DNA of 64,000 nt. Origin: Candidatus Poribacteria bacterium. Its GTDB lineage: Bacteria > Poribacteria > WGA-4E > JAJDTR01. The DNA is taken from assembly GCA_965222225.1 (NCBI GenBank), contig CBDCTK010000002.1:5152001-5216000 (forward strand), read 5' to 3'. Shown here in pieces: positions 5,988 to 62,085 of the stretch. The notes under the pieces are model-generated. The model searched no databases. It was not told the DNA's origin and worked only from the letters and a program-made list of their open reading frames with translations. Each line of letters starts with the position of its first letter. Position 1 is the first letter of the stretch. Position numbers and translations under genes: made by a program.

Positions 5988-6024
5988 GATCAACCGACTG
6001 AATAAGGAGGGCGATAGAAATTCA
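5988..6024 (+). repeat. single copy of the ~37-bp GATCAA...GCGATAG unit
   Basis: GATCAACCGACTGAATAAGGAGGGCGATAGAAATTCA matches the family consensus and abuts a 5'-truncated gene. Confidence 0.8.
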
Positions 6025-7852
6025 ACAGATTGCTGATCGGCGTTATGCGCCCCGCCGAAGCGGTTGAGGAGCAAGAATTGCTCCAACAGATTAGAGAAGC
6101 CGTGCTATGGAGGCCGGAACCCTCTGAGAAACCGCCACCGATGCCGAAGTGGCAGCGATGAAGGAACAGTTCACGAAACGGATTGAAAACGGGTTTGAAC
6201 TCAGTGAACGGTTTCTCGGCATGTATCCCGAAAGCGAGAAGCGTGATGAGGCATGGATGTACAATATCCAATGTCTTTTGGGACTCTGCAGGCAAGAGGA
6301 AGCCAACGCTGAGATCGAAGCGTTCTTGAAGGCGTTTCCCAAATCGAACACGCCTTAGGAGTAAGGATGATTAAGATTGGGCTAATTGAACACGAGGGAA
6401 AATACAAGGAGGCGCTCGCCGAGTTAGACAAAATGGATCACTCGGCGGTTCTTCCCCAGGTGTATGAGGAGAAGGCACAACTCTACTCACACATGGAAAA
6501 TTGGGAAAAAGCCGCCGAATACCGGCTCCTCGCCGCAGAATTGACATTGGGCAAGCCTGCCCCGGATTTCACGCTGAAGGACATCAACGGTAAAACCGTC
6601 TCACTCAAGGATTTTCATGGCAAGGTCGTCCTGCTCGACTTCTGGGTGACGTGGTGCGGGCCATGCATCCACGAGCTACCGGAGCTGAAGGCGATTTATG
6701 AAAGACACAAGCACAACCCCGATTTCGCCCTCATTAGTATCAGTTCGGATTTTGATGACGAAACAGTCGCGAAGTTCGTCGCGAATAATGAGATGCCGTG
6801 GATTCACATCCGCGAGACCGAAGAGATGCAAGTGAAATTCAGTGTGATTGCATTACGCACTACACTGTCATTGACAAGAACGGGCTGATACGCGAAGACA
6901 ATCTGCGCGGTGGTATCCAACTCAACGCGGTGATTTCCTCCCTGCTTGCCGAAGCGCCGGGCGAACCGGATTCGCCAAACTCCACGAGTTGAGTGCGGAT
7001 CTGCACAATAGGCGCGGCGAACGGGAGCAGGCGATTCAGGTTGCGATGGACAACGACCTGGATGATGGATATTTGGCGAAGCGAATAAAAGGGATGACGA
7101 ATCGGATTTCGGAAATCCGCGACAGATCGGCGTTCAAGGCGTTTACGGAAGCTGTCCCCAAGACGGAACAGGACAGGCGGACCGACGAGGCGAATCGCAA
7201 GCTGAACGAATTCACCAATGAGCGGATTGAAGCCCGGAATTCCTTCCTACTTGTCAAAGCTGACGGCGAGATATTCATGGGTGTGATTCTGAGTTCAACG
7301 GGCCATCTGCTTGTTCCCGACAGTGTCGCCGATGCCACGGACATCCGGGCGAAGATGACAGATTATCTACCGGCTGTTGCTAGGGATTCGGAGGCAAGGC
7401 TGGCTGTTATAAAAATTCAGGGCGCGGGCGACTTGCGGCCTGTCGAGATGGGGACAGTCGATGACTTGAAGGAGTACGCGCCGTACAACTTCGCAATGGC
7501 AAATGGTCGCACGAGCAGATCGTTTCCTACAATCGTGCTGGTTACGCCCCGTGGTTATTCGGGAAATAGTGACGTTGGACAAATCGCCGTACTCATCGGT
7601 GACAGTGTCGGAACGTTTGAAATTGACAAGGCAGGAAATGTCACTTCATTCCAAATCGGTTCAAGTGAATCAAAACTCGGTGATGCGTTTGTCCACTACG
7701 ATGGCAAATTGCTCGGATTCTGCGTCGAAGATGAGGTCCTCTACAAAGGTTCCGCGCATAGCATGCCCGGTCCGAAATGTAATGTCGCACCAATCGATCA
7801 GATTCAAGCAAGCTTGGAACGGATGGGTGTGACAGAAATGCTTGGAGACTAG
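6025..7852 (+). pseudogene. disrupted TPR + TlpA/redoxin + trypsin-like multidomain gene
   Basis: Consecutive ORF pieces in different frames (6149, 6367, 6798, 6989): TPR-like helices, 'APDFTLKD...LLDFWVTWCGPC', continuation 'HYTVIDKNGLIR', and a trypsin-like 'GVILSSTGHLLV...LAVIKI'. Several frameshifts and no clear start. Confidence 0.7.
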
Positions 7853-7879
7853 GGGCTTGCGGTGGGTTGTTGCAATGGG

Positions 7880-7906
7880 GTAGGGACGTAACGGGAACGT
7901 CCCTAC
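7880..7906. repeat. GTAG-flanked REP-like palindrome between convergent genes
   Basis: GTAGGGACGT-aacggga-ACGTCCCTAC, perfect 10-bp stem. Confidence 0.7.
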
Positions 7907-7917
7907 GCCGCAATTTG

Positions 7918-8115
7918 TCAATCCGCCGCCGACCTGTCGGGATAGGTGATGGGACCGCTAACGTTGAATTCTTGACGCAGGCATTTGCGGCAATAATACG
8001 TCAGAAGCATTTTGCGATACGTAAAGCCCTTCGCTTGGTTACCGCACGTGTCGCAGTGTTGCTCCTTTATACCTCGAATGGCATCGGTAACCCTTGAACC
8101 CGCTGAAGTATTCAT
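7918..8115 (-). CDS. small CxxC/CxxC zinc-ribbon-like protein
   Basis: 65 aa with CDTC and CRKC; AGGAGA RBS just before the ATG; ECF-like promoter upstream. Confidence 0.55.
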   Translation of the reverse strand: MNTSAGSRVTDAIRGIKEQHCDTCGNQAKGFTYRKMLLTYYCRKCLRQEFNVSGPITYPDRSAAD

Positions 8116-8183
8116 TCATACTCTCCTGTTATGGACTCTTGATGAATCAAACCAGAAACTACTACTTGTCTGTTATGCTATAC

Positions 8184-8675: not shown

Positions 8676-8679
8676 TAAG

Positions 8680-9765: not shown

Positions 9766-9773
9766 CCGGTCGG

Positions 9774-9915
9774 GATCAAGCGACTGAATAAGGAGATCAA
9801 GCAAGCGAATAGCGATCAGCTGAGTGGTTAACGAAGGAGCAACTGACCGATAGGGAAGGCGGTAGAGATCCCATAGAAGATCCCGCGCGATAGTCATTCC
9901 TGCGATAGAGATCTC
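9774..9915 (+). repeat. nested cluster of 37-bp units (3 left halves, 1 full unit, 3 right halves)
   Basis: GATC starts at 9774, 9795 and 9814; full variant at 9837-9872; then three GCGATAG/ATAG...ATCCC-like right parts. Confidence 0.85.
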
Positions 9916-15907: not shown

Positions 15908-16076
15908 GATCGAAACCCCGAATAGTTTGTAGGGTGCGATCGACGATCATCAAATCATCGATTTCCCCTCTTACTGCGATCAACTGAGCGGATAGCGAAG
16001 GAGCAACTGACCGATAGGGAAGGCGGTAGAGATCCCATAGTGAGTGCGATAGCAAATCTCGTGCGATAGAGATTCC
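15908..16076 (+). repeat. REP plus nested 37-bp unit cluster
   Basis: GTAG REP at 15929-15974, left half at 15978, full variant at 16001-16036, two right parts; 45 bp are identical to 9832-9876. Confidence 0.85.
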
Positions 16077-16166: not shown

Positions 16167-18692
16167 TCATTCTAGAGAAATCACGATGGGTTCAATACCC
16201 TGTGATTCCCTTAGTTGCTCCGCGAATTCCACGGCTTCATGCCGTTCTTTGAAACGTCCGACCGTCACTCGGTACCACGGTTGGGATTTGATTACCACCC
16301 GAGAGGATTGAATATCATCTGCGATATCTAACGTCTTCAGGTTCTCAACGAGCAGTTCTGCACTCTCACGGGATTTGAATGAACTGACCATTAATGTCCA
16401 CTTCCCCCGCATATTTTCCTTTAACCGAGCCGACGAACGAAAATCGAGTTCAGATATCTCACTAGATGTCTCTTTCACGCGGTTAGAGATTTCGGAAATC
16501 ATATCTGCGTCTAGACCAAGGGAACCTGATATGGATAACACGACCTCTACGCGCCGGTTTTTGTGGCGAATGGATTCCACATCGTTATCCACGATTGGCT
16601 TTTCCTCACCATAACCTTTTGTCTTCAACCGTGCCCAGGAAATGCCAAATTCACGAACAAGATAGTCCTTCACTGCATCCGCACGCTGATGCGATAGTTC
16701 GAGATTGTAGTCGGCATCGCCAATACTATCCGTATGCCCTTCTATGCTTACCTGCGCCTTTGGATACGTGAGAATCACCTTCGCAAATTTTTCTAGAACC
16801 GCCCGATAGCCATCGCTGATTTCATAAGACCCCGTATCAAAAGCGATGCCCGGAAGTGTCAATACAACCTCGCTATCTTCTGGTTTCTGTTCTGTTGCCT
16901 CATGCTGAGGCGGTAACACGTCCTCGGAGGTAACCTCCTCTTGGGGCGTGGCATCCTCATCGACTAGCAGTTTCTTTGAGGTTAAATCGATTAGCTGAAG
17001 AGGAGCGGTTTCCGAATTACGATTGCCGGCGATGTCATGTATTGTCATCTCTAAATGGTAGTCCGCTTCCGAGTCCGCGAGCAGTTGAGAACGCTCCCAG
17101 TTGTTCCAGACAATCGTGTTCGACGGTGGGCTGTCTCCCGCGAGTGTATCTATGACATCTCCTCCGCTCTTTACAATCTTCAGTTCCCATTGCACAATCT
17201 GATTCAAATCTGGCGTCTGTATATGTACTGTTGGTGTGTTGGCTGTCCGCGAATCGCTTGAACTCGCCTTGGTATCCGCGTCCGATGACGGCTCAATCAA
17301 AAGCGGTTCCGCCTGGATTTCGAAATCTGTCGGAGTAGTATCTACCTCAACGGTCACTTCGCGCTGTAAATACTGATAATTCCGCAAATCGAGCACCGTG
17401 AATTGAGCGGTGTATGTGCCGTCGTTTACTAGATTACCGGCATCGTCCTGTCCGTTCCACATGAGTACCTCTTTACGTAATCCGGTTCCGGAATAGCGCC
17501 TCAAGGTCTCACCGTGCTCATCGTGGATTTCCAACGTCCATTTCGCATTAACGGGAATGGTTAAGCTAAATGACGCAATATCCTTAATGTCGTCGCCATT
17601 TGGCGAAATTACCCGCTCGGAAACCCGGAAGTCCGTTTCATTTTCACGCAGTGTAACTACCGGATCGATAGTTTTTGGATGTTGTGGAGGAGGGGTGGGC
17701 ATTATGATTGGGGCAGGGAGTTCTGGAGGATTGGTCGGAGCCACAGTCGGAATGCCGTTCCAACGAAAAGTTGCGGCAATCCAATGCGATCCCTCATCAA
17801 ATTCGCCGCCGTTGAGGTATGCGTAATCAAATCTCCCTGTGTCACTGCGCAAGCTGAATCCACTTGACCATTCTCCCTCGGTGAAATTTTCATGGTTTGT
17901 AATTGCAGTATAGCCAAAGCGAATGCCGAATCGTCGGTTGAATATCCACTTTTCTACCCCTAAATGCAGGCGAAATCGGTCTTTCCATGTGAGTTGGTCG
18001 TCATTGTGCAGCGTGAAATCGCTCGATAAAATCGTACCCCAGTCAAGATGATACGCTGTACCGAAACGAGCCACAAGCGGCAAATCTTGAATGAGTTGTC
18101 CATCTCTATACAGTCGGCCGTCAAAATCTTCAAAACTCAATCCGAAAGCGACTCGATCGCCCAAGCGCGTCAACTTCCGCGAAACCTGAATCCCGATGTC
18201 ATAAGACCATCCAAGATGTGTGTTGGCACCTCGACTCCGACGATGATGGCGGATATTGGCGCCTGCGGCAACCGATTTTCCAAATGAGTATCCGTAGCCT
18301 AGGAGCATGATTCGATTTTGTTCCCGATCTTCGCCCCAGCCATCAAACCAAGAGCCAAACGAGATATTCCCGATTTTTCTGGTAGAAATTCCGAGGTTTT
18401 CCGGATTTAAGCCAATTGAGAACGCCCCTTCTCGGTTTGTCAAGTTTTCGGCAAAGGGTAACCCGACCAAGGAAACTTCCATTCCGCTCAAAAACCCGAG
18501 TGATGATGAATTCCAATAGAAGCTGTCGCTCCCGGCTGGTCCCGCGGTGAAGGCACTCCCCATCCCGAGCGCTCTCGCACTTGCTCCGACGAGGATGTCC
18601 CTGTCGCTGATGTCTGATTTTATCTCGGTTGTTGAAGAAATGACCAATATCAGTGTAAGAGTTGCTGTTACGGCAAAAGTATTTAATTTCAT
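16167..18692 (-). CDS. outer-membrane protein: PorV/PorQ-like barrel + FlgD-Ig + OmpA-C + SPOR
   Basis: Signal peptide; 'VGASARALGMGSAFTA'; Pro-rich linker; 'ISPNGDDIKD...WNGQDDAGNLVNDGTY'; 'IEGHTDSIG...LSHQRADAV...NRRVEV'; 'WYRVTVGRFKERHEA'. Confidence 0.8.
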   Translation of the reverse strand: MKLNTFAVTATLTLILVISSTTEIKSDISDRDILVGASARALGMGSAFTAGPAGSDSFYWNSSSLGFLSGMEVSLVGLPFAENLTNREGAFSIGLNPENLGISTRKIGNISFGSWFDGWGEDREQNRIMLLGYGYSFGKSVAAGANIRHHRRSRGANTHLGWSYDIGIQVSRKLTRLGDRVAFGLSFEDFDGRLYRDGQLIQDLPLVARFGTAYHLDWGTILSSDFTLHNDDQLTWKDRFRLHLGVEKWIFNRRFGIRFGYTAITNHENFTEGEWSSGFSLRSDTGRFDYAYLNGGEFDEGSHWIAATFRWNGIPTVAPTNPPELPAPIIMPTPPPQHPKTIDPVVTLRENETDFRVSERVISPNGDDIKDIASFSLTIPVNAKWTLEIHDEHGETLRRYSGTGLRKEVLMWNGQDDAGNLVNDGTYTAQFTVLDLRNYQYLQREVTVEVDTTPTDFEIQAEPLLIEPSSDADTKASSSDSRTANTPTVHIQTPDLNQIVQWELKIVKSGGDVIDTLAGDSPPSNTIVWNNWERSQLLADSEADYHLEMTIHDIAGNRNSETAPLQLIDLTSKKLLVDEDATPQEEVTSEDVLPPQHEATEQKPEDSEVVLTLPGIAFDTGSYEISDGYRAVLEKFAKVILTYPKAQVSIEGHTDSIGDADYNLELSHQRADAVKDYLVREFGISWARLKTKGYGEEKPIVDNDVESIRHKNRRVEVVLSISGSLGLDADMISEISNRVKETSSEISELDFRSSARLKENMRGKWTLMVSSFKSRESAELLVENLKTLDIADDIQSSRVVIKSQPWYRVTVGRFKERHEAVEFAEQLRESQGIEPIVISLE

Positions 18693-24665: not shown

Positions 24666-24667
24666 AT

Positions 24668-28888: not shown

Positions 28889-29043
28889 GTAGGTTGGGTT
28901 GAACGATCAAGCGAGTGGATAACGAGCGCGATAGAGATCCCAGTGCGATAGAGATTCTCAGGTGTATAGTAGAACAGGTCTCGCAGGACCACAAGCCCCA
29001 GAGGGGGATCAAACGAGTGAATAGCGATTGCGATAAAACTCCC
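28889..29043 (+). repeat. truncated REPs fused to two 37-bp units
   Basis: GTAGGTTGGGTTGAAC|unit 28905-28941 + right half; AAGCCCCAGAGGG|unit 29007-29043. Confidence 0.85.
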
Positions 29044-31292: not shown

Positions 31293-31346
31293 AATCAAGC
31301 GAACGAACAGTGAGTGCGATAGTAAATCCCGTGCGATAGAGATCCC
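31293..31346 (+). repeat. 37-bp unit plus right half
   Basis: AATCAAGCGAACGAACAGTGAGTGCGATAGTAAATCCC-GTGCGATAGAGATCCC. Confidence 0.85.
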
Positions 31347-32592: not shown

Positions 32593-32658
32593 GTAGGCTG
32601 GGCAATTCGATGAGGCGAGCGAATTATGACTGCGATAGAACTCCCATAGAAATTTCTC
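32593..32658 (+). repeat. truncated REP plus diverged 37-bp unit
   Basis: GTAGGCTGGGCAATTC|GATGAGGCGAGCGAATTATGACTGCGATAGAACTCCC|ATAGAAATTTCTC. Confidence 0.7.
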
Positions 32659-34109: not shown

Positions 34110-34150
34110 TAAAAAAGCACCCAACCAAGACATTGATGGGTGCTTTTTTA
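34110..34150. terminator. bidirectional intrinsic terminator
   Basis: TAAAAAAGCACCCA...TGGGTGCTTTTTTA, downstream of the RRM gene. Confidence 0.8.
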
Positions 34151-34186
34151 GGGTGGTTGGTAAGTAATGCGTTAGGTTTTTACCAT

Positions 34187-34513
34187 CTACCATCTATTAC
34201 CGCCACCACCACCACCGCTACCGCCACCGCGTCCCCGTCCACCGCCGCGTCCCCGTTCACCGCCGCGGTCTTCCCGAGGGCGTGCTTCGTTGACCTTGAT
34301 TGCACGTCCCTGTAACTCGCTACCATTAAGTTCCTGAACTGCTCGCTCGCCATCGGCTTTCTCTCGCATTTCGACGAACCCAAACCCTTTTGATTGACCA
34401 CTGTACTTGTCCATGATAATGTTGACAGCGTCAACTTCTCCGAAAGCCGCAAATAGCCCCCGCAATTCATCATCTGTGGCATCGAACGATAAATTGCCTA
34501 CGTAGATGTTCAT
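34187..34513 (-). CDS. RRM RNA-binding protein with Gly/Arg-rich tail
   Basis: RNP2 'IYVGNL', RNP1 'KGFGFVEM', 'VNEARPR'; GGAGA RBS before the ATG at 34513. Confidence 0.93.
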   Translation of the reverse strand: MNIYVGNLSFDATDDELRGLFAAFGEVDAVNIIMDKYSGQSKGFGFVEMREKADGERAVQELNGSELQGRAIKVNEARPREDRGGERGRGGGRGRGGGSGGGGGGNRW

Positions 34514-34820
34514 ATTTGTCTCCCAAATCGGTAAAGGCAAAAGAAAAATGTCATCAGACAACAGTTTTGTCTGTGCCATCTTTAATGTTTTTAAGAGTGG
34601 ATTGAAATGTGCCTGTTATCGCGGTGTTTTGGCAGGAAACATAGAATGGTAGGAATAAAAAACTGATTCTTATTCATCAAGGCTAGCTGTCAAAATACTG
34701 CTCTTTTTCTTGAAGGGCGAAAATTTCGCGCTTCAATTTCGGACACAACCGGTATTATAACACAGATTCGTAATTTGCGCAACATTCCATACTATTTCTG
34801 ATGTCAACCCGTGGGCCACT

Positions 34821-36181: not shown

Positions 36182-36548
36182 GTGCGATAGAAATCTAAGC
36201 AGCCTTATGTCCGTGCGAAACGCTGTAGGAGCGATTTCCGAATCGATCAAACGAATGGACAGCGATCGACCGAACGATTAGTGAGGGCGATAGCAAATCC
36301 CGTGCGGTAGAAATCCTTAGAAGTCAGGAATCGGAATTCCCTCCTACCCAAATCACACGCTCTATAATCGATATTGCCACCTAATGTAATTTGAAATCAA
36401 GATCGACTTTGTAGGGTGGGCATTGTCCACAAGCCTTTGAAAGCGCCAGTGGCAATCAAGTGAGTGCACAACGATCAACTGAACGAATAGTGAAGGCGAT
36501 AGTAAATCCCGCGCGATAGAAATCCCATAGAACACCGTGAAACCCAAC
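36182..36548 (+). repeat. two nested 37-bp-unit clusters interleaved with REPs
   Basis: Left 36245 + full 36264-36301 + right; left 36454 + full 36473-36510 + right; GTAG REPs at 36225 and 36411; REP right arm at 36531-36548. Confidence 0.85.
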
Positions 36549-45063: not shown

Positions 45064-45444
45064 GTAGGTTGGGTTGAACGGAAATCCATAAGAAGTCGCA
45101 GGCAGGAGAAGGCATTCCGAAGAATTATTTCCCCCTGAAATCACTGAAACTCAAGTGAAACCCAACACCTCATCGCACATGCTGTGCCTGTAGGGGCTAT
45201 CGACAATCATCAAATCGTCGATAGCCCCTCTTACCAGCCTTCTTGCCGAGCTGTAGGAGCGATCTCCGAATCGCGACGAAACCGATCAACCGAGTGAATA
45301 ACGAGGGCGATAGAAATCCCTTTTTTCTTCAAAACTCGGTTTCTCCTTCTGCGTAGAGAATAACGATCAAGCGAGCGAATAGGGAGCGATCAAAAGAGCG
45401 AACAGCGACTGCGATAGAGTTCCCATAGAGATCCCCGCTATTCC
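45064..45444 (+). repeat. mosaic of three REP families and 37-bp units
   Basis: REPs at 45064, 45190 and 45253; units at 45284-45320 and nested at 45365/45388-45436. Confidence 0.85.
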
Positions 45445-52674: not shown

Positions 52675-52913
52675 ATCGAGATTTGCGATCGGCGCACCTA
52701 CAATGAGTGTGTCAAGCGTGGCGAAATCTCACTGAACCGTTCAGGGGGTTTTCAGACTTTTGAGATAATAATTAGGATTTACGCAAGTTACCCTGATTCA
52801 TGCGCATTGGAACAAGCCCTATTCAAGACTGTTGCACACACTCTTGAAATGAACCGAGCTTCCCTTCGCGCGTGAATGGGGTTGTAGATATACCATTTTA
52901 TGGAGGAAGATTT

Positions 52914-53936
52914 ATGGCATTCTATCGTGCGGCTGTAATCGGATGCGGCCGGATTGGCAGTACTATCGACGACGAGCAGCGCGATCGTCCGCAATTTCGC
53001 TACCCATGGGCACACGCACCGGCATACGTGGAAGCGAAGGGCGTGGACTTGATAGCTGGCGCCGACCTTTCGAAAGACCAGCTTGAGGATTTCAAGCGTC
53101 GTTGGAACGTCACCGCGCTCTACACCGACTATAAGGAGATGCTCGTTAAGGAAAAGCCGGATATCATCAGTGTCACAACCAAGACTACGGAGCGGGCGGA
53201 GGTAGTCATCACGGCTGCTGAAGCGGGGGTCAAAGCAATCTATGCGACCAAACCGATGTGCCAAACGCTGGCAGAGGCGGATGCAATGATTGAGGCATGT
53301 CGAAGACACGGCGTCATTCTTGCCATGGCGTGCCACAAGAACTGGAGCCCATGGTTACAGGCGTGCCTGCGGTGCATCAGGAAGGGAGACATCGGAGAGT
53401 TCTCCTCCATGGTTGCCAACTACAGTTGGAGTTTTAACGGCGGACATAGTCACACACTTGCGCTATTCCGCCAGTTTGCAGACGCGCCGGCAAAATGGGT
53501 GTTCGGTCACATGGACAGCGATGAAGCAGCCGCGGGAGAGAAAGACTTGCGAGGAACGGGCATGATCCTCTACGAGAATGGAATTCGGGGATTCCTGAAC
53601 ACCGGTGGCTGGTTAAACATTGACTTTATAGGGCGTGATGGGTGGTTCAGTTGCAGGAACGAACACGCCGATTTTGAGATGTGGGGCCGCCACCCGGACA
53701 CACGCGAACCCATCCGCCGTCAGTTTCCAAATCCGAAACGCCCCAGGAGTTCTCAACAAGCCGCTGTCGAAGGAATCGTCAAGAATCTCGACGAAGGTAC
53801 AGAGCCGCTCTGCCCGGGGGAATTCGGACGCGAAGCCCTCGAAATCGCAGTCGCGTTGCGGGAATCGCACCGGCGCGGTGGAGAGAAGATTGAACTTCCC
53901 GTGGCTGATCGGAGTCTGGGTTTCCAAAATCATTGA
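52914..53936 (+). CDS. Gfo/Idh/MocA oxidoreductase
   Basis: 'AAVIGCGRIG', 'YATKP', 'ALEIAVALRES'; GGAGG RBS before ATG 52914. Confidence 0.88.
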   Translation: MAFYRAAVIGCGRIGSTIDDEQRDRPQFRYPWAHAPAYVEAKGVDLIAGADLSKDQLEDFKRRWNVTALYTDYKEMLVKEKPDIISVTTKTTERAEVVITAAEAGVKAIYATKPMCQTLAEADAMIEACRRHGVILAMACHKNWSPWLQACLRCIRKGDIGEFSSMVANYSWSFNGGHSHTLALFRQFADAPAKWVFGHMDSDEAAAGEKDLRGTGMILYENGIRGFLNTGGWLNIDFIGRDGWFSCRNEHADFEMWGRHPDTREPIRRQFPNPKRPRSSQQAAVEGIVKNLDEGTEPLCPGEFGREALEIAVALRESHRRGGEKIELPVADRSLGFQNH

Positions 53937-53937
53937 C

Positions 53938-54050
53938 AATCAAGCGAGCGAATAGGATCAACTGAGCGGATAGATCAAGGGACTGAATAAGGAGTGCGAT
54001 AGAGATCCCGCCAGTATATTTGTAGGGTGCGCACCGCGCACCAGCCTTTG
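53938..54050 (+). repeat. two left halves, full 37-bp unit and a REP
   Basis: AATCAA at 53938, GATCAA at 53956, full unit at 53973-54009, GTAG REP at 54022. Confidence 0.85.
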
Positions 54051-54238
54051 ATAGTGCTCATCCTCAAATTACGGGGAATGGCACCTGTTATTCAGACAGG
54101 CTCCGGAACTACGCGAAGCAAACACAGGTAGCTCGCCAAGACGGTGCTTCGCCCCCTTGGTACGCTACTTTGGAGGCATGACCCCACAGGATTTTCGACA
54201 CATTTGTAGTACGAATACAAAATCTAACGAGGTGAAAC

Positions 54239-55270
54239 ATGAGGCTGGTACTACTTTCTTACAGTCACCACGGACGCAGCATGGCGCAGACAGCGCAAAA
54301 ACTTGGCCACGAAATTGTCGGCGTAATGGATGCCGAGGAGGAGCCGCGACAACGACTTGTCGATGACTTTCAATGCCCGGGATTCGATACCGCTGAATCT
54401 TGCCTCAATACTATCAAGCCGGATGCGGCGCTCGTGGCAGGTAAGCATGTCGAGATGCCTTCCCATATAGGTGCATGTGTGGATCAGCGCGTGCCGTACC
54501 TGTTGGATAAACCCTTTGCCGATTGTGCGGCGCGTCTGCGTCCGGTTGCCGAGGCGTCCGATAAACATGGCGTGTTCAGCGCGCTTACGTTGCCCAACCG
54601 CGCGAGTCAAATTGTGAGGGTGGTCCAAGGGATGGTCGAAGATGGCTCACTCGGCGACCTCGTCCTGTATAACAGCCGTTTGAATAATGGGCCTCCCTCT
54701 CGCTACGATCCGACGCCATCGTCTTGGCACAACGATCCGCAATTCTCCGGAGGCGGCTGTTGGGGAGTTGAAGCCGCCCACGGAATCGATACTTTTCTAC
54801 AATTCGTGGGTTACAAACCTATCACTGTCGTGGGCGCCGTCATGTCAAATGCCATGCACCGGCGTTGCGTTGAAGATGTCGCCATGGGTATTCTACGAAC
54901 GGACGATGGTGTGACCGGAATAGTCGAGTCGGGCTATTGCTATCCTTCGGGTGTACGCGCCGGCGATCATTTCTTCCGATTCGTTGGAACGAAGGCGTCA
55001 GTGTTTCAGCAGTACGACACACAAGGCCAGGCGGTCATTGAAGTTCACACCACCGAAGGTGTTGCAGTTGCCGAAAACGTCTCGCGCGGAGGTAACCAGG
55101 GCGTCATGGGCGAAGCCTTTTCGGCGATAAGCGAAGGACGTACCTTTGAACCAAACATCCTTACTGCGGTTCGCGTACTCGAAGTCCAAGATGCCGTCTA
55201 TGACTTCGCCCGGAAGTCAGCCATGACGAACGGTCCTCACGCAATGGGAACGCCCGCCCCGCGCCCATAG
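54239..55270 (+). CDS. Gfo/Idh/MocA oxidoreductase
   Basis: 'LLDKP', 'SGGGCWGVEAAHGID', 'VEDVA'. Confidence 0.82.
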   Translation: MRLVLLSYSHHGRSMAQTAQKLGHEIVGVMDAEEEPRQRLVDDFQCPGFDTAESCLNTIKPDAALVAGKHVEMPSHIGACVDQRVPYLLDKPFADCAARLRPVAEASDKHGVFSALTLPNRASQIVRVVQGMVEDGSLGDLVLYNSRLNNGPPSRYDPTPSSWHNDPQFSGGGCWGVEAAHGIDTFLQFVGYKPITVVGAVMSNAMHRRCVEDVAMGILRTDDGVTGIVESGYCYPSGVRAGDHFFRFVGTKASVFQQYDTQGQAVIEVHTTEGVAVAENVSRGGNQGVMGEAFSAISEGRTFEPNILTAVRVLEVQDAVYDFARKSAMTNGPHAMGTPAPRP

Positions 55271-55310
55271 AACGCTTAGACCACTCGTGAACACAGTGAA
55301 TCCAACTCCT

Positions 55311-55469
55311 GTAGGAGCGATCAAGCGAGCGATTAGCAAGTGCGATAGAGATCTTGAAGGTGTATAGAAACGCCAATCCACTACGAATCAAGAGCCCCAG
55401 CGGGGCGACAGGTATGTAAGTTAACCCGTAACCATTCTGGAGGTTGGGTTGAACACAGAGAAACCCAAC
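55311..55469 (+). repeat. truncated REP, 37-bp unit and two further REPs
   Basis: GTAGGAGC|unit 55319-55355; GCCCCAGCGGGGC hairpin; GTTGGGTT...AACCCAAC. Confidence 0.8.
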
Positions 55470-55626
55470 TCCTAGCTGATACTGTATGGGTTGATTGAAT
55501 AGATTAATGGGCGCCCCCACAACCAAAACCAGAAGTCATTGTCCTGCCATCCTAATATTTAAACCACTTTCCCTACTTGAATTACTATCCTCCGCTCACA
55601 ACCTGAGCCGATAGCGCAAAGTCACC

Positions 55627-56373
55627 ATGTCACAGTCCGAAGATGTCACAATTGATGAAATCGATTACCCGCTGGTTTATGTCCCGGAAGGATCATTTCT
55701 CATGGGAACAATCCCCACGGCCTTTCGGAAAACCGACCATGAAGAACCGCAGCGTGAGGTGACGCTTGACGCTTTTTACATTGGAAAACTTCCCCTGACC
55801 AATGCGCAGTATTCGCAATTCCTCGAGTTCAACGGTCACCATTTTCCCCATTTCCATGACAATCCGCGTTTCAACGCATCCAATTGCCCCGTTGTGGGAA
55901 TCAGTTGGTACGATGCCCTGGCGTTCCTGATGCGGCTCGATGAACTTAGCGGCAAGTCTTGCCGTTTGCCGACGGAGGCGGAGTGGGAAAAAGCCGCCCG
56001 TGGAACGGATGGACGAATATATCCGTGGGGAAATGAGTGGGATGTCTCAAAAGGAAACTTCGGCGAAATGCGGCTCAAGCGGACGACACCTGTTGGCAGC
56101 TATCCGAGCGGCGCCAGTCCTTACGGATGCCTCGACATGGGCGGCAATGTCTACGAATGGTGCAGCGATTGGTTCCACCCGGAAACGTACAAGTATGCCC
56201 CTGCAGACAATCCCGGCGGTGCGGCGGATGGCAGACGCAAAGTAATTCGCGGCGGCTCCTGGGTACCCCGCGGCGAATTTGCCGCACGATGCGCCAATCG
56301 GGCGGCTTATGAGCCAACGGAGAGGGTGCATAATGTCGGCTTTCGGATTGTGATTTCGGCGGCGGCTCGATAG
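55627..56373 (+). CDS. formylglycine-generating enzyme (FGE/SUMF1) domain protein
   Basis: 'FLMG...EEPQREV', 'RLPTEAEWEKAARG', 'DMGGNVYEWC', 'RGGSW', 'VGFR'. Confidence 0.92.
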   Translation: MSQSEDVTIDEIDYPLVYVPEGSFLMGTIPTAFRKTDHEEPQREVTLDAFYIGKLPLTNAQYSQFLEFNGHHFPHFHDNPRFNASNCPVVGISWYDALAFLMRLDELSGKSCRLPTEAEWEKAARGTDGRIYPWGNEWDVSKGNFGEMRLKRTTPVGSYPSGASPYGCLDMGGNVYEWCSDWFHPETYKYAPADNPGGAADGRRKVIRGGSWVPRGEFAARCANRAAYEPTERVHNVGFRIVISAAAR

Positions 56374-56475
56374 CCTACACTTCGAGCTGAGTCCCTAAAG
56401 CTTGCCCGACACAGACCATAACCCGTTTCCCGCAAATTGATGGCATGTGTCGTACATCTCTCAGCCCTATCTAAT

Positions 56476-57549
56476 ATGGCGCCCAAAAACATCTCACAAT
56501 TTCGTCGTAATCTTTTGGCTTGGTTCAAGGCGCATCACCGCCAACTTCCTTGGCGCGAGACGAACAATCCATACCATATCTGGGTTTCAGAGGTGATGCT
56601 CCAGCAAACTCAGGCAATAAAGGTAGTGGAATACTACCAAGATTTTGTCGATAGATTTCCCGCGCTCCAACATCTGGCTAAGGCGGAACTGGATGATGTT
56701 CTAAAACAGTGGGAAGGTTTGGGATACTACGCCAGAGCGCGAAATCTGCGTAAAGCTGCCAAAATACTTGTAGATCAGATGGATGGGGAAGTCCCGGCGG
56801 ATTATGACTCGTTCCGAGAGCTGCCCGGCGTGGGTGACTATACCGCCGCGGCAGTGCAGAGCATAGCATTTAACAATCCGTATGCGGTTGTGGATGGGAA
56901 CGTGAAACGCGTAGTTGCCCGACTGTTCCTCATCGGTGCACCCGTGAATCAAAATGCCTCGGCGAAAATCTTCCAATCAAAAGCGGATTCTTTACTCGAC
57001 GGTGATGCTCCCGGACGTTTCAATCAAGCGATGATGGAACTCGGGTCAAGAATCTGCCGACCAAAATCCCCGCTCTGCGTTGTCTGTCCGGTAAACGATT
57101 TCTGTGACGCATTCCGGACGGCACGCCAAGACGAATTCCCCGTACGAGTGAAATCCAAGCCTACTCCCGAATATCACATTGCCGTGGGCGTTATTTACAA
57201 GGGAGATCGCGTTTTAATCACCCGGCGCAAAGCGGAAGGTTTGCTCGGCGGGTTGTGGGAATTCCCCGGCGGCAAAGTTGAACAGGACGAAACCGCCAAA
57301 GCCGCCTGTGTTCGAGAGATTCGGGAGGAAGTCGGTCTCTCTGTTGAAAAGGTAGATTTCCTTACGCGTATCAATCACGCCTATTCACACTTCAGAATTG
57401 GCGTAGATGTCTTTCGCTGTCACTATCGAGCACGCGAAGTGGTTTTGAACGGTCCCGTGGATTATCGGTGGATTCGGCTTGAGGAGATTGATCAATTCCC
57501 CTTCCCGCGTGCCAATCACAAATTCATCCCATTATTGAAAGCGAATTGA
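56476..57549 (+). CDS. mutY: A/G-specific adenine glycosylase with C-terminal Nudix domain
   Basis: 'WVSEVMLQQTQ', 'WEGLGYYARARNL', 'LPGVGDYTA', 'VDGNVKRV', 4Fe-4S CX6CX2CX5C. Confidence 0.95.
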   Translation: MAPKNISQFRRNLLAWFKAHHRQLPWRETNNPYHIWVSEVMLQQTQAIKVVEYYQDFVDRFPALQHLAKAELDDVLKQWEGLGYYARARNLRKAAKILVDQMDGEVPADYDSFRELPGVGDYTAAAVQSIAFNNPYAVVDGNVKRVVARLFLIGAPVNQNASAKIFQSKADSLLDGDAPGRFNQAMMELGSRICRPKSPLCVVCPVNDFCDAFRTARQDEFPVRVKSKPTPEYHIAVGVIYKGDRVLITRRKAEGLLGGLWEFPGGKVEQDETAKAACVREIREEVGLSVEKVDFLTRINHAYSHFRIGVDVFRCHYRAREVVLNGPVDYRWIRLEEIDQFPFPRANHKFIPLLKAN

Positions 57550-57592
57550 TATCATAGGAAACAACGACTATTATTCCGTATGTTTTGGGTTT

Positions 57593-57885
57593 GTAGTAGT
57601 GCAATTCATTGCACGTCCACAGATTGTGTTACGTAGGTTGGGTTAAACGGAAATCCACGAGACAGCGCACGCAGAACGCGTTTTCGAAATTCCATTTTGC
57701 CCGAAAGAGCCGAAATACGAGTGAAACCCAACACTCCATCCCGCACAATCTTCAATTCATCAAATCGTCAATTCCCCTCGTCATCTTGTTGGATCAAGCG
57801 AACGGATAGTGAAAGGATTTTCTATCGCCCTTGCTATTCACTCGGTTGATCGATAGAGATCCCATAGAGATTTCCCGTTATTCCC
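57593..57885 (+). repeat. REP mosaic with an inverted 37-bp unit nested in a forward unit
   Basis: REPs at 57596 and 57633; left half at 57792, inverted full unit at 57815-57851, right parts to 57876. Confidence 0.85.
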
Positions 57886-57970
57886 TACGATTCCATAACA
57901 CGCGCTCACAAAGATGAAAAAGTCCGAAACCTCCCCACTCTCCTCACCACCACGTCTACATAACTTTTCC

Positions 57971-58016
57971 TTGACATTTAGCCCCGGTATAAGATATAAT
58001 TTAGGCAAGCCTAAAT
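57971..58016 (+). promoter_or_regulatory. sigma70 promoter overlapped by a DtxR/MntR-type operator
   Basis: TTGACA(57971)-N18-TATAAT(57995); palindrome ATTTAGGC-aa-GCCTAAAT at 57999-58016. Confidence 0.8.
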
Positions 58017-58067
58017 AATTTCAAAAGGCTAGACTAACTGATTTTTAGAACATGCTGGAGGCGCACG

Positions 58068-58721
58068 ATGCACACTCAGGCGGTTGAGGATTACCTCAAA
58101 GCAATCTACAAGCTGGCAGAAAGAAAAAGTAAAGTCACGACTTCCCTTTTAGCAGAATTCTTGGACGTAACGCCGGCCTCCGCGACAGGTATGCTCAAAA
58201 AGCTAAAGCAGATGAATCTGGCGGCCTATGAACCCTATAAAGGAGTGAGTTTGACCGAATCCGGACAGAAAATTGCTCTGGAGGTAATACGTCACCATCG
58301 TCTAGTTGAACTTTACTTGGCTGAAGCGCTCAACGTACCGTGGGACAAAGTGCATGAGGAAGCAGAGAAGTGGGAGCATGTGCTTTCTGAAGATCTTGAA
58401 GATCGGATTGATACGATACTTGGTCATCCGACTGCCGATCCGCACGGCGCGCCAATACCCAATCGAGATGGAACCGTCGCGATGCCTGCATTAAGCCCTT
58501 TGACGGTTCTCGAAGCTGGGCAGACAGGGATCATTGCCGAAGTGAGCGATCACGATTCGGCGCTATTGCGTTATCTTGGCGAGATGAATCTATACCCGGA
58601 AACGGAGTTCACGGTACTTGATATAGCGCCGTTTAATGGCCCGATAACCATCCGTAGCGAAAATTCCGAAAAGATCCTGGGTTCGGAAGTTGCGGGATAT
58701 ATTTTCGTGAGGTTAACCTAA
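58068..58721 (+). CDS. DtxR/MntR/TroR metal-dependent repressor with FeoA domain
   Basis: 'VEDYLKAIY', 'RHHRLVELYL', 'HEEAEKWEH', 'DPHGAPIP'. Confidence 0.95.
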   Translation: MHTQAVEDYLKAIYKLAERKSKVTTSLLAEFLDVTPASATGMLKKLKQMNLAAYEPYKGVSLTESGQKIALEVIRHHRLVELYLAEALNVPWDKVHEEAEKWEHVLSEDLEDRIDTILGHPTADPHGAPIPNRDGTVAMPALSPLTVLEAGQTGIIAEVSDHDSALLRYLGEMNLYPETEFTVLDIAPFNGPITIRSENSEKILGSEVAGYIFVRLT

Positions 58722-58800
58722 AGATATTCCGGTCTTGTAACCTTGTAGGGATCAACTGAGTAGTCTTTGTAGGGTGAGCGCTGCCCACCAGCCTTTAATT

Positions 58801-59736
58801 ATGCGTATACTTGGAATTGTCCTAATCATTGCCTCAACTGTGTTTCTCCCGTCTTGTGAACGACAGGGCAAAAACAAGGAGCACGACGATGGGCAATTTG
58901 ATGTCGTCGCGACAATTGGCATGATTGCCGACATCGTGAAAGTTGTCGGCGGCGATCATGTCAAGGTGACAGCGCTCATGGGTCCCGGCATAGACCCGCA
59001 TCTATACAAAGCGACCGCCGGAGACGTTTCGCGACTGACTGGTGCGAATATTATTTTCTATAACGGCTTGCATCTTGAAGCCAAGATGTCCGAAGTGCTG
59101 CGGCAGATGTCGAGTCGAGTAAAAACGGTTGCCGTTACCGATAGAATCGACCGCTCAATGTTGCTCGCTCCCCCCAAGTTTGAGAGCGCTTATGATCCGC
59201 ACGTCTGGTTTGATGTGACGCTTTGGAAAAAAGCGGTCGAAATTGTTCGCGATTCGCTTGTCAAGGCAGACGCCGAGCATTCGGAAACTTACGGACGAAA
59301 TTCAAAGGTTTATCTCGCGAGACTGGATGAACTTCACGAATACGTAAAGACCCAAGCGGGGCGTGTGCCGGAAAATCAACGCGTGCTTGTTACTGCGCAT
59401 GATGCTTTCAACTATTTCGGACAGGTTTACGGCTTTCAGGTACGCGGGCTGCAGGGTATCAGCACTGTAACGGAAGCCGGCACCGCGGACATTCAAGAGC
59501 TCGCTAAGTTTATTGTCCAACGGCGTATTCCCGCGATGTTCGTCGAAACCTCGGTGTCGTCGCGGAACATTGAGGCGGTACAGGCAGCGGTCAAATCACG
59601 AGGATTCGACGTAGAAATCGGAGGTCAATTGTTCTCTGATGCCATGGGTGATCCGGGAACGCCTGAAGGTACGTATATCGGCATGGTTCGTCACAACATT
59701 GACACCATTGTGAAATCCCTCGCGCCATCCGATTAA
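58801..59736 (+). CDS. Mn/Zn/Fe ABC transporter substrate-binding lipoprotein (TroA-like)
   Basis: Lipoprotein signal '...FLPSC'; 'GIDPHLY', 'DPHVWFD', 'TAHDAFNYF', 'LFSDAMG'. The ORF's upstream GTG lies within a REP. Confidence 0.92.
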   Translation: MRILGIVLIIASTVFLPSCERQGKNKEHDDGQFDVVATIGMIADIVKVVGGDHVKVTALMGPGIDPHLYKATAGDVSRLTGANIIFYNGLHLEAKMSEVLRQMSSRVKTVAVTDRIDRSMLLAPPKFESAYDPHVWFDVTLWKKAVEIVRDSLVKADAEHSETYGRNSKVYLARLDELHEYVKTQAGRVPENQRVLVTAHDAFNYFGQVYGFQVRGLQGISTVTEAGTADIQELAKFIVQRRIPAMFVETSVSSRNIEAVQAAVKSRGFDVEIGGQLFSDAMGDPGTPEGTYIGMVRHNIDTIVKSLAPSD

Positions 59737-59777
59737 TATCTGGCCATGTGGTAAATACTGCGCGCCAGAATTTAAAA

Positions 59778-59897
59778 GCCCCAGAGGGATCGAGCGAACG
59801 ATCAACTGAGCGGTTAGCGAGTGCGATAGGAATCTCATCTTGCCCCGCATTGGAGAGACTTGATTAACGCCAATAATGCACTGCGAATCTAGGGAAA
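59778..59897 (+). repeat. 37-bp unit joining two different truncated REPs
   Basis: GCCCCAGAGG|GATCGAGCGAAC|unit 59800-59836|ATCTTGCCCCGC plus tail homologous to 8610-8675. Confidence 0.85.
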
Positions 59898-60088
59898 TGA
59901 TATATACCCAATGAGCTAAGCTTCACGTTCCAAAGACTGTGTCGCTAAGTCGTCGACAATCACGATTTGTGTCCTTTTCCAGCTAGTCATGGAACGACTG
60001 CCTAGCCATAAAATATTCAACTCCGTTACTACTATGATGGTAAATTGCATTCGTTCCGCGGCATGTTGATGTCGCGTAGGAGGGAAAA

Positions 60089-60931
60089 ATGCCAAGCTAT
60101 TCCGGAGAATCGGCGATTGAGGTCGAAGACCTCACCGTAGCCTACCGGGATCAACCTGTGCTCTGGGATGTCGATCTCAATGTTCCAGCCGGAGTCCTGA
60201 TGGCTATCGTCGGTCCCAACGGTGCCGGCAAAACCACACTTATCAAGGTGATTTTGGGCTTGGTGCGTGCGGCAGCCGGGCGCGTTTCAATCTATGGTCA
60301 GTCCTATTCTGTTCAACGTCGCCTTGTCGGTTACGTTCCGCAGCGAGGCAGTGTTGATTGGGACTTCCCCACAAGCGTGTTGGATGTCGTGATGATGGGA
60401 CGTTACGGCGCACTTGGTTGGATACGGCGCCCCGGATCCAGAGAACGAAAATTGGCGCTGGAAGCGCTGGAGAAAGTTGGAATGCAAGATCTGGCGCACC
60501 GACAAATCAGCCAACTCTCTGGCGGGCAACAGCAGCGTGTTTTTCTTGCACGTGCGCTTGTTCAAGACGCACAAATCTATTTCATGGATGAACCGTTTCA
60601 GGGTGTGGATGCCACAACCGAACGCGCGATTGTCGCGCTGCTGCAGGAGTTGCGTGCAGCGGGAAAAACACTCGTTGTAGTTCACCATGACTTACAGACG
60701 GTTGTGGACTACTTCGACTGGGTTACGCTGCTCAACGTGCGGCGCGTTGCAAGCGGGCCGGTCAGAGAGGTGTTTACCGAGAAAAATCTTCGGCTAACCT
60801 ACGGCGGGCGAATAGCCTTTCTTAATCGTGGGGAGGATGAACCTGCCGAAACACAAACCGCGCCTCATATAATTGCACCGGGGGAGGTCGAGAGTGATTA
60901 TACTGGAGTTGGGGAGAGACCTATTCCTTGA
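60089..60931 (+). CDS. metal ABC transporter ATP-binding protein (TroB-like)
   Basis: 'GPNGAGKT', 'YVPQR', 'LSGGQQQRV', 'MDEPF'. Confidence 0.95.
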
Positions 60932-62027
60932 TTATACGCTACGAACAGTGGCTTTGGGTTCGGCGACGCTCGGCGTTGTGAGTGGAGCTCTCGGTTCTTA
61001 TGCCGTGCTGCGGAAACAAAGCCTGCTCGGAGATGCAATCTCACACGCGACTTTGCCCGGCGTCGCATTGGCATTCCTACTGACACAAAGCAAAGCTCCG
61101 CTCGTCCTCGTTATCGGAGCGGCGATATCTGGATGGATCGCCACGCTGCTCGTAATCGGCATCGTCAACAACACTCGGATTAAAGAAGATAGCGCGCTCG
61201 GCTTGGTGCTTTCGGTCTTCTTTAGCGTGGGGATGGTTCTGCTTACGGTAATCCAGAAAATGCCTACCGCCAGGCAATCGGGCTTGGACACCTTCCTGTT
61301 TGGCCAAGCCGCCGCGCTCCTGGAGCGTGATGTCATAACAATGGCTTCGCTCGGCGGAGTGACTATCATCATTATGCTATTTTTTTGGAAGGAGTTTAAG
61401 TTACTTTGTTTTGACTCGGCTTTTGGTGCAAGCCTGGGATTCCCAATGGCGGTTCTTGATGTCCTGCTAGTTACGCTCCTCGTGGTTGCGATTGTAGTGG
61501 GGCTCCAAACGGTAGGTGTGGTGCTGATGAGTGCGATGGTTGTGGCTCCCGCTGTCGCGGCACGACAGTGGACAAATCGGCTCGGAGGAATGGTTGTTCT
61601 CTCTGCGCTTTTTGGCGCGATTGCCGGTGTCAGTGGAACTGTCATAAGCAGCAGTGCGGTTCAGATTCCCACAGGTCCGACTATTGTGCTTTCTATCAGC
61701 GTAATTGTGGTGCTATCGATTACCTTCGCCCCAAACCGCGGACTCGTCTGGAATTGGATTCTCAATCAGCGTGAACGTAGAAAACTCCAAATCGAAGTCG
61801 TATTAAACGACCTCTACACGCTTGCATCACAACACGCAGACCCCCGTCACAGTCATTCCACCGCGGTCTTGGAGGCGATGAGCGCAAACCGGAGTAATGT
61901 GCGCAACAGTCTCAGAGAGTTAGCCTCGCGCGGTTGGGTTGAAAACGTCAATTCAGACGAATGGGCGTTGACATCCGAGGGAGTTATTCAAGCGCGGTAT
62001 GTTACCAGTCGGGGATCAAGGGAGTGA
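60894..62027 (+). CDS. metal ABC permease (TroC-like) with C-terminal winged-helix extension
   Basis: '[14 protein letters not shown]', 'FLFGQAA', '[10 protein letters not shown]'; tail '[10 protein letters not shown]...WALTSEG'; GGAGG + GTG at 60894. Confidence 0.9.
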
Positions 62028-62085
62028 ATAACGACCAATCAAGCGAACGAACAGTGAGTGCCATAGAGTTCCCATAGAGATCTCC
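62014..62085 (+). repeat. nested 37-bp units overlapping the permease stop codon
   Basis: Left half at 62014-62036 contains the TGA; full unit at 62037-62073; right part follows. Confidence 0.82.

Follow-up and report, generated by a model that had tools for sequence, protein, structure and literature searches.

A Small Hairpin Repeat of 35-37 nt Interrupts REP and CRISPR Repeats in a Candidatus Poribacteria Genome

A 64,000-nucleotide stretch of a Candidatus Poribacteria bacterium genome (GenBank assembly GCA_965222225.1, contig CBDCTK010000002.1, forward strand; hereafter the window) carries a dispersed repeat unit of about 35-37 nt, whose copies share a small irregular one-strand hairpin, G-ATC-AA-[NN-GA-NN]-G(A/G)ATA-[NN-GA-NN]-GC-GAT-AG, followed in the window's genus by AGATCC(C). 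The assembly totals 5.70 Mb in two contigs with 50% G+C, and the window is C2:5152001-5216000, C2 being the main contig. An initial annotation of the window, made from the letters alone, had listed 16 full copies in 14 intergenic regions; all 16 carry the consensus GATCAA-nn-GA-nn-G(A/G)ATA-nn-GA-nn-GCGATAG-AGATCCC, and they are spread over 13 spacers between long open reading frames (ORFs). The window has 30 occurrences of the core heptamer GCGATAG, where 6.9 would be expected, and 0 of 100 shuffles attain that number. A covariance model trained solely on copies from other genomes and then run on the window recovered 15 of the 16 copies (E <= 3.3e-4), missed the degenerate copy at 32609, and added three weak partial matches. 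The initial annotation had held that a match to a known Rfam family would speak against a new element; a scan of the whole window found none, either at the gathering score or at E <= 1.

Many of these sites are arrays in which hairpin modules are combined with GCGATAG tails and with ATAGAGATCCC pieces of 11 nt, so the nearly fixed length given in the initial annotation holds for the unit, though not for a lone 37-mer, since many sites are nested or tandem. On the plus strand of the window (scores are those of the covariance model), the first site is a full unit at 5988-6024 with the hairpin CC-GA-CT / GAATA / AG-GA-GG and a degenerate 3' tail (54.8 bits). An array of tandem and nested hairpin modules with repeated GCGATAG tails occupies 9780-9915, with a full unit at 9837-9872 at its end (32.9 bits) and a weak partial model match at 9768-9803, and a second array at 15978-16076 (33.3 bits) consists of a module (15978-16000), a full unit (16001-16036) and two more GCGATAG tails. 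Several of the next sites touch repetitive extragenic palindromic (REP) repeats of GTAG type, numbered here REP-1 to REP-4. At site 28905-28959 (64.2 bits) a REP arm of the GTAGGTTGGGT type is adjoined on its 3' side by the full unit 28905-28941, after which comes a duplicated tail, GTGCGATAGAGATTCTC, and the full unit at 29007-29043 (44.3 bits) lies within a AGCCCCAGAGGGG...CAGGT hairpin of REP-2 type. A full unit with a duplicated tail is found at 31293-31346 (36.4 bits), and a degenerate unit, beginning GATGAG and with the loop GAATT, lies 3' of GTAGGCTGGGC at 32609-32645, recognised by the consensus and with no model match at E <= 1.

After a REP-4-type GTAGGAGCGATTTCCGAATC, the array at 36243-36317 (44.2 bits) has a split or partial module, a full unit (36264-36300) and an extra tail, and the site at 36452-36526 (55.7 bits) has a partial module, a full unit (36473-36509) and an extra tail. 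An intact REP-4 (CTGTAGGAGCGATCTCCGAATCGCGAC, 45251-45277), a host-type GTAG REP, adjoins the full unit at 45284-45320 (61.3 bits), and at 45365-45436 (51.3 bits) there is a nested pair in which the inner full unit (45388-45424) splits the outer after ...GAGC G, the outer tail being ATAGAGATCCCC. An array of split modules at 53931-54009 ends in a full unit at 53973-54009 (49.7 bits), with an intact REP-1 downstream at about 54020-54050, and the full unit at 55319-55355 (49.4 bits) is fused directly to a REP-4 5' arm (CTGTAGGAGC/GATCAA, the slash marking the joint). At 57793-57875 an outer plus-strand unit is split by an inverted inner unit on the minus strand (57815-57851, 47.9 bits; plus-strand partial match, 18.3 bits). 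The last two sites are a partial module with a full unit (59800-59836) at 59788-59836, in the context AGCCCCAGAGG...GCCCCGC (41.7 bits), and a nested pair at 62014-62084 (32.9 bits), in which the outer unit (62014-62036) has the tail ATAGAGATCTC and the inner is at 62037-62073. The "halves" seen in the initial annotation are largely outer units split by inner insertions. Another dispersed repeat, GAAACCGAGTTTT...AAAACTCGGTTTC (45318-45352 in the window), is often found beside units; counting its 12-mers AAACTCGGTTTC and GAAACCGAGTTT gives about 120 copies genome-wide.

The strict anchored pattern GATCAANNGANNGNNTANNGANNGCGATAG has 557 matches on the main contig and 559 in the whole assembly, where the reversed pattern used as a control has 0. 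No 12-mers of the genome are more frequent than pieces of the unit, GCGATAGAGATC being present 283 times genome-wide. Only 21 of the 557 strict copies lie wholly within crude ORF calls, though these calls cover 73% of the contig; the unit is thus extragenic and present in high copy number, as is required of REPs and of REPINs, their inverted doublets. Among the 557 copies there are 277 different left flanks of 8 nt, and the commonest stem sequence is found in 51 copies, so many contexts exist, yet many copies clearly multiplied together with the host REP. Mixed orientation was found in 85 of 993 clusters (81 intergenic, 4 inside gene calls), the others being direct or nested. No match to the unit pattern was found in viral contigs.

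Copies were aligned by their invariant columns alone before pairing was counted. Columns 7-8 pair with 22-23 and columns 11-12 with 18-19 to form the hairpin 5'-NN GA NN [G(A/G)ATA] NN GA NN-3', in which an invariant tandem mismatch (5'-GA-3'/3'-AG-5') separates the two 2-bp steps. Of the 2228 variable cells in the 557 copies, 97.1% are Watson-Crick or G.T, compared with 58.9% when partners are shuffled (maximum 61.3% in 200 shuffles); all four variable pairs are formed in 498 of the copies, which hold 125 distinct stems. The same was found in 140 distinct copies from other genomes, with 95.9% paired against 62.9 +/- 1.4% in shuffles (a level reached in 0 of 500), 250 cells altered on both sides against 43 expected, and 23-59% paired when the 3' partners were slid as a control. 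The initial annotation had placed the variation in these columns, as is seen genome-wide, and had stated that the unit is not a hairpin and matches at its GATC ends only, which is wrong; the marginal stability of the fold is probably the reason that the hairpin was overlooked. An outer 3-bp helix, ATC/GAT, is predicted; its columns are nearly invariant and it is therefore untestable by covariation, though where C4 has changed to T the T.G pair is retained in 21 copies, compared with 4 copies with C.A. In four chromosomes of 4.7-4.9 Mb, all metagenome-assembled genomes (MAGs), the hairpin and GCGATAG are unchanged (60 of 64 cells paired), while the tail is TCTT... or TTTT... and not AGATCCC, and the units lie within REPs of the GTAGGTTGGGT...ACCCAAC kind or next to them; what is conserved as the core is thus GATCAA-hairpin-GCGATAG, of 30 nt.

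The 557 copies have 232 G.T cells and only 18 A.C cells, which points to the purine-rich GATCAA strand as the strand selected for folding, either as RNA or as single-stranded DNA. An element acting at the RNA level would be a structured RNA motif, with a GNR(N)A-type pentaloop and a tandem G.A stem, that either moves by way of an RNA intermediate or gives host transcripts a signal for processing or for protein binding. Such tolerance of G.U is typical of RNA helices; with RNA parameters the minimum free energy (MFE) structure consists of the covarying pairs and the outer 3-bp helix in 484 of 557 copies (mean MFE -4.6 kcal/mol, -3.0 for shuffles), compared with a marginal DNA fold, and the loops GAATA (296 copies) and GGATA (192), with GATTA (38) the next commonest, fit the GNR(N)A class. 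Contigs from RNA libraries span at least one unit (32609), where carry-over of DNA is possible, and spread through an RNA intermediate was reportedly proposed for the small dispersed repeats (SDRs) of cyanobacteria. Against this, G.T is the least destabilising mismatch in DNA too, no Rfam family matches the window, and the orientation of units follows GC skew and is near random relative to flanking genes (among co-directional gene pairs, 300 clusters on the same strand and 254 on the opposite one). The genome's sole match to PF00078 (RVT_1) is an AbiA-like defence reverse transcriptase of 670 aa (C2:4499560-4501572, minus strand; PADLOC AbiA/DRT, 254.8 bits), which is present in 8 of 31 genomes of relatives and does not track the element. 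A lone enzyme of this kind, together with column variation that is compensatory stem change, also leaves the variant template library or cDNA origin proposed in the initial annotation without support. We regard an RNA-level element as unlikely, if still worth keeping in view.

The genome has several GTAG-type REP families, each of which is found both intact and interrupted by units. REP-1, defined by the anchors GTAGGGTG...CACCAGCC, has 105 intact copies with 9 nt between the anchors and 22 interrupted copies with 43-44 nt; REP-2 (AGCCCCAG...ACAGGT) has 20 with 7 nt and 32 with 41-43 nt, REP-3 (GTAGGCGG...CCCGC) has 15 with 10 nt and 16 with 42-44 nt, and REP-4 (GTAGGAGCGA...TCGCGAC) has 85 with 8 nt and 10 with 41-43 nt. 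Filled REPs have thus gained a net 33-36 nt over empty ones, in keeping with the discrete, oligonucleotide-sized inserted unit that the initial annotation had proposed, and no target duplication was found in these comparisons. Clean junctions with a gain of 35 nt exist (for example GCG/ATCAA...GATCC/CACC). Inserts usually follow a G (GCG, GGG or AAAAG before the junction) at the apex or on the 3' side of the host hairpin, and single letters overlap at the junctions, a G on the 5' side and a C on the 3' side. Within REPs the unit shares the GTAG (top) strand in 117 cases and takes the other strand in 2, while 3 further cases have units on both strands. GTAGG is found at most 60 nt upstream of 230 of the 557 copies, compared with 3% of random 60-mers, because units sit inside or beside GTAG REPs.

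Units also interrupt each other. Excision of the inner copy rebuilds the outer hairpin for 12 of 456 full units (2 in the shifted control), all of them split after G13 of the outer loop, and all 12 have the look of a single composite that was amplified. Units also nest at a second site, just behind the G of GCGATAG, as in the window at 45388 and 62037. The observations together establish block insertion without target duplication into hairpin repeats, namely the four GTAG REP families, CRISPR repeats (described below) and the unit's own loop. A series of 5' truncations, as expected of target-primed copying, gained no support, since the histogram of lengths is bimodal (full units and tails, few intermediates), although the 3'-end motif used is too permissive in the low classes of that histogram. 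The tails with no full strict hairpin immediately upstream number 210; of these, 118 follow a degenerate hairpin and 56 the end of another unit. The flanks of whole arrays show a modest excess of complementarity (13.2% against 7.0% at <= -12 kcal/mol; Mann-Whitney p 0.005).

These junctions might also arise with no dedicated mobility, through replication errors at hairpins (template switching, slippage, or gene conversion between REP clusters), in which a nascent strand stalled at a hairpin apex would copy a nearby unit and then return. The fuzzy joints (1-4 nt), the single-letter overlaps, the lack of target duplication, the position of targets at hairpin apexes, the tandem duplications of the 17-nt tail (the 56 tails noted above among them) and the coupling of orientation to GC skew would all fit such errors. 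The same sharp-ended block is, however, found in at least 277 8-nt left contexts and in two genera of different families, the stems covary under a pairing selection that is not required of a passive by-product, and the strand rule of 117 to 2 is very strict. We consider replication errors an improbable source of the family, both as a class and in the stalled-strand form.

The largest cluster of units in the genome, 20 modules in 1.28 kb, is a clustered regularly interspaced short palindromic repeat (CRISPR) array invaded by units; no master tandem array, which the initial annotation had suggested might exist, was found in the genome. The array (about C2:2705500-2707762) has a 37-nt repeat starting with GTAG and 11 spacers of 35-39 nt, and follows cas1 (C2:2702925-2704112; PF01867, 235 bits; TIGR00287, 225 bits) and cas2 (C2:2704264-2704515; TIGR01573, 50 bits). 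One unit lies between cas1 and cas2, and the 9 kb examined at this locus yielded no recognisable effector genes. About 5 of 16 CRISPR repeats are broken inside the hairpin by single or composite units of either orientation, which adds CRISPR repeats to the classes of hairpin target. Among 31 genomes, any match to Cas1 was found in 20 and close orthologues (at least 79% identity) in 12, namely in 7 of 10 genomes of the window's genus (g1), 4 of 4 of genus g4 and 1 of 3 of genus g6, with 0 in the 13 genomes of families f2 (the phylum's largest sampled family) and f4. Four close orthologues have in-frame stops (TGA, TAG, TAA and TAA), and orthologues with stops or truncation were seen in relatives G001, G003, G004, G027 and G012, which suggests that the adaptation module is decaying in several species.

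The length of the unit, 35-37 nt, is that of the spacers of this cas1-cas2-linked array, and the unit could be a spacer-sized parasite of CRISPR adaptation, captured by Cas1-Cas2 and integrated off-target at hairpin or cruciform DNA. Its targets are palindromic and include CRISPR repeats, the range of close Cas1 orthologues overlaps that of the element, and Nunez and colleagues are said to have reported in 2015 that Cas1-Cas2 integrates off-target beside cruciform-forming DNA. Nevertheless, no segment of the target is duplicated at inserts, and no unit was found in the array as a spacer between two intact repeats. The orthologue is missing from three unit-rich g1 genomes (321-628 copies), while a g6 genome that carries it has 0 copies of the unit. 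Duplex prespacers would also not be expected to show so strict a single-strand signature as that of the G.T excess over A.C and of the strand rule. We give Cas1-Cas2 integration a very slight chance.

In a scan of one genome per species at least 101 stretches matched, and among the matches listed all were MAGs named Candidatus Poribacteria bacterium. The pattern is present in 17 of 151 genomes of the phylum, including all nine sampled genomes of g1, the window's own (G000) among them, with 320-860 copies each, and all four of genus g4, which belongs to another family, with 118-137 copies. Traces were found in genera g2 (2 copies), g6 (2 of 20 genomes, one with 15 copies) and g12 (1 copy), and none in the 100 genomes of family f2. 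Among these 151 genomes, high copy number is found in two genera of different families.

Turnover was sampled in seven spacers of the window (52700-63400) across five congeners with gene identity of 82-91%. Spacer IG7 is 173, 164, 5, 828, 138 and 5 nt long in the six genomes, and spacer IG3 is 63, 239, 63, 233, 741 and 66 nt long; none of the seven has the same number and orientation of units in all six. At 62037 a filled/empty pair was found, since at the orthologous site of congener G005 the outer unit stands by itself (gacc-GCG-ATAGAGATCCC-cttgcc), without the inner. The initial annotation had set identical presence at orthologous sites beforehand as the outcome pointing to static sites; such identity was not seen, and the differing occupancy speaks against them.

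Immobile polar DNA sites, selected by the host and kept in place (for instance as binding sites of a nucleoid- or replication-associated protein), could account for the strongly extragenic position, for an orientation tied to GC skew as in polar chromosome motifs, and for the 11-nt phasing of ATAG-nGA motifs and the two GATC sites 31 nt apart that can be read in the sequence in the window's genus. However, orthologous spacers of the six congeners vary in presence, number and orientation of units, duplex binding sites would not be expected to show covariation of otherwise free stem letters, and the second GATC is absent from the copies in the four MAG chromosomes described above. Units also break CRISPR repeats and REPs, and none was found in 100 genomes of the phylum's largest sampled family. 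Host-selected sites are accordingly very improbable in our view.

In 57 bins of 100 kb, unit orientation is correlated with raw GC skew (Spearman -0.58, p 3e-6) and hardly with gene strand (-0.09). A replication component of the skew, r, was separated from transcription skew by averaging over plus- and minus-strand genes. With the transcription effect removed, the GATCAA strand is on the C-rich strand in 70-86% of copies, increasing with |r|, and orientation flips sharply over short distances (10:0 at r -0.061 adjoining 3:20 at r +0.038). Intact GTAG REPs share this bias (88 of 115, 55 of 76, 8 of 9 and 15 of 24), as do units without a nearby REP (59 of 80). At the dnaA gene (C2:2610389-2610874) r switches from minus to plus, as it does at normal origins. 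Replication-type skew is weak (mean |r| 0.02) with many sign changes, and the transcription-linked skew is larger, at 0.056; this patchy profile means that the chromosome is much rearranged, or imperfectly assembled or mis-joined. In Pseudomonas fluorescens, according to a passage of PMC3116915, tandem arrays of REPs are oppositely oriented on the two sides of the origin, so replication-linked orientation of REP-type repeats has precedent.

Matches to Y1_Tnp were found at five loci of the genome. The best is a 157-aa protein (C2:3080255-3080728, locus L005; PF01797, 83.7 bits) that scores 65.8 bits with the NCBIfam IS200/IS605 model (cut-off 55) and 30.6 bits with the REP_Tyr model (cut-off 80), and has the HUH and Tyr residues in place when aligned to solved IS200/IS605-family transposases. 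Its gene is flanked by units in inverted orientation; its own flanking repeat, as judged from homologues in other genera, is a AGCCCCnnnGGGGCGACA(G/T)GT hairpin, the downstream copy of which carries a unit as an insert in this genome. Three loci are REPtron-like, L005, L007 (C2:3088937-3089299, with an in-frame TAG in the Y1 gene) and L008 (C2:3727535-3728017), and the Y1/RAYT-like gene of each has a flanking REP family of its own, AGCCCCnnnGGGGCGACAGGT, GTAGGAGCGATC...TCGCGAC or GTAGTAGGC...; two Y1 genes other than the best one have REP-4 and a GTAGTAGGC-type REP at their flanks. Inverted units bracket 26 single ORFs, mostly ordinary-looking, among which the mobile-DNA candidates are the Y1 gene and cas1 only. 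The initial annotation had guessed at an HUH enzyme, a reverse transcriptase or a Cas1-like enzyme encoded elsewhere; copies do adjoin Y1 and cas1 genes, but as inserts in the local hairpin repeats.

The unit belongs with the very small, structure-defined dispersed repeats, yet to no family that has been described, and the literature searched (the main texts of a limited collection) held no description of it, or of any DNA repeats in Poribacteria. The initial annotation goes too far in holding that there is no described element with such behaviour. Elhai and colleagues are said to have described in 2008 the repeats SDR1-8 of Nostocaceae, units of 21-27 nt whose hairpins are supported by compensatory changes. 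As reportedly described, SDRs resemble the unit in being tiny dispersed hairpins with compensatory changes, inserted in short repeats and in themselves, and in being restricted to one coherent lineage. The unit differs from them in its length (35-37 nt, compared with the reported 21-27 nt of SDRs), in its occurrence in Poribacteria and not cyanobacteria, in its invariant tandem G.A, in its targets at the apexes of GTAG REP and CRISPR-repeat hairpins, and in its GC-skew orientation. One passage, in PMC5861425, confirms that SDR5 is inserted in HIP1.

REPs, REPINs and bacterial interspersed mosaic elements, with their REP-associated tyrosine transposases (RAYTs), share with the unit an extragenic position, a high copy number, a structure-defined single strand and mosaic clusters, and the REPs of this genome have its strand and GC-skew bias. 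As set out in an excerpt of 10.1101/279083, a REP has GTAG or GTGG 0-2 nt 5' of the foot of its hairpin, a fully paired basal stem of 7-20 nt and a loop of 2-5 nt. By those criteria the unit differs, as it starts with GATCAA, has no GTAG or GTGG at that position, and has 2 + 2 covarying pairs around a tandem G.A with a 5-nt loop and no full stem of 7-20 nt. Furthermore, no Y1 gene is flanked by the unit as its own repeat (no REPtron), and unlike REPINs units are mostly in direct or nested arrays and not in inverted doublets, REPs serving as their targets. IS200/IS605 elements, in the same excerpt, have a hairpin with a stem irregularity, insert 3' of a short target without duplication, and take a strand orientation tied to replication. 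The unit recalls this "peel and paste" transposition in its irregular stem, in inserts that follow a G without duplication (though with 1-4 target letters apparently lost in some REP families) and in its bias to the C-rich strand, but it has one hairpin in place of distinct left-end and right-end hairpins, its target is apparently just a G in a hairpin apex with junctions that vary by 1-4 nt, and its polarity relative to the fork may be opposite, the indicators disagreeing.

Insertion sequences of the IS1397 type insert specifically into REPs (Tobes and Pareja 2006, from the references of PMC3116915); their targets are hairpins like those of the unit, but they are full transposase-encoding elements and not some 36 nt encoding nothing. 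CRISPR repeats and spacers are like the unit in size, with a small central hairpin and conserved ends in the repeat, whereas the unit is dispersed, has stems that differ between copies, does not duplicate the repeat and interrupts it. A miniature inverted-repeat transposable element was rejected, since GATCAA at one end and AGATCCC at the other do not form inverted repeats, and filled/empty pairs have no target duplication.

Overall, what the initial annotation observed is partly confirmed and its interpretation partly supported. We give about an even chance to the unit being a lineage-restricted, non-autonomous micro-element of about 35-37 nt, akin to REPs and SDRs and acting on single-stranded DNA. 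Such a unit would be recognised and moved as single-stranded DNA exposed in replication, by a trans-acting enzyme that reads its structure and fixed flanks. The most plausible class for such an enzyme may be Y1/HUH (IS200/RAYT-type), because the element shares its strand, targets and skew bias with RAYT-associated REPs. Only copies that keep the fold would be copied, which would yield the covariation, and many copies would then multiply passively as passengers of REPs.

Several results weigh against this reading. With DNA parameters the hairpin averages +1.0 kcal/mol and is the MFE structure in 33 of 557 copies only, and single copies folded as DNA do no better than shuffles; DNA energy alone neither shows nor refutes the hairpin. 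Junctions are not uniform, some REP families appearing short of 1-4 target letters, and independent insertion events are far fewer than copies, many of which are amplified composites. No cognate enzyme was found at the five Y1 loci, where units occur only as inserts and other REPs flank the genes, and among 31 genomes no Y1 type matches the range of the element (L005 type in 18, L006 in 3, L007 in 14 and L008 in 4; element in 15, with high copy number in 13). At 88 loci from other genomes the pooled r is -0.011, of the same sign, with 26 negative and 15 positive (p 0.12-0.16, not significant). The position of dnaA suggests normal polarity, which would place the folding strand on the template of the leading strand, contrary to the IS608 rule, and an indicator that conflicts with this polarity is the share of coding bases on the C-rich strand, 54%.

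A bolder form of the idea makes the unit a parasite in its own right, some 36 nt long, able to transpose itself into any extruded hairpin apex by an undescribed reaction, or, at its boldest, one that the local Cas1-Cas2 spreads as a selfish "spacer", eroding the array; we see little prospect of either being right.

Two further features of the window lie apart from the units. An 841-aa protein encoded at 16167-18692 (minus strand) has a PorV/PorQ-like N-terminal part (64.7 bits, cut-off 90) and a C-terminal OmpA-like domain. Short tandem repeats with periods 3, 6, 15 and 18 and proline/glycine-type codons lie at 34181-34267, where they overlap small ORF calls (33974-34315, plus; 34180-34482 and 34187-34579, minus), and contigs from public runs carry length variants of them (3-, 7- and CCG-indels). 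Contigs from four public runs (two RNA-library, two other) mostly start or stop at repeat-bearing spacers, where the joints are repeat artefacts.

As public-run contigs break at unit spacers, the element will affect assembly quality and CRISPR calling in sponge-symbiont metagenomes. If mobile, it would be among the smallest DNA units that behave as insertions, and it offers handles for study in a structure defined by covariation over hundreds of copies, hairpin targets, a strict strand rule and a link to replication polarity; the invariant tandem G.A should be a recognition feature. The movement of repeats below 40 nt, such as REPs and SDRs, is unsettled, and the family gives oligonucleotide-scale substrates for Y1/HUH or other enzymes. 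Its patchy range among Poribacteria could make it a lineage marker or a trace of transfer between co-resident symbionts.

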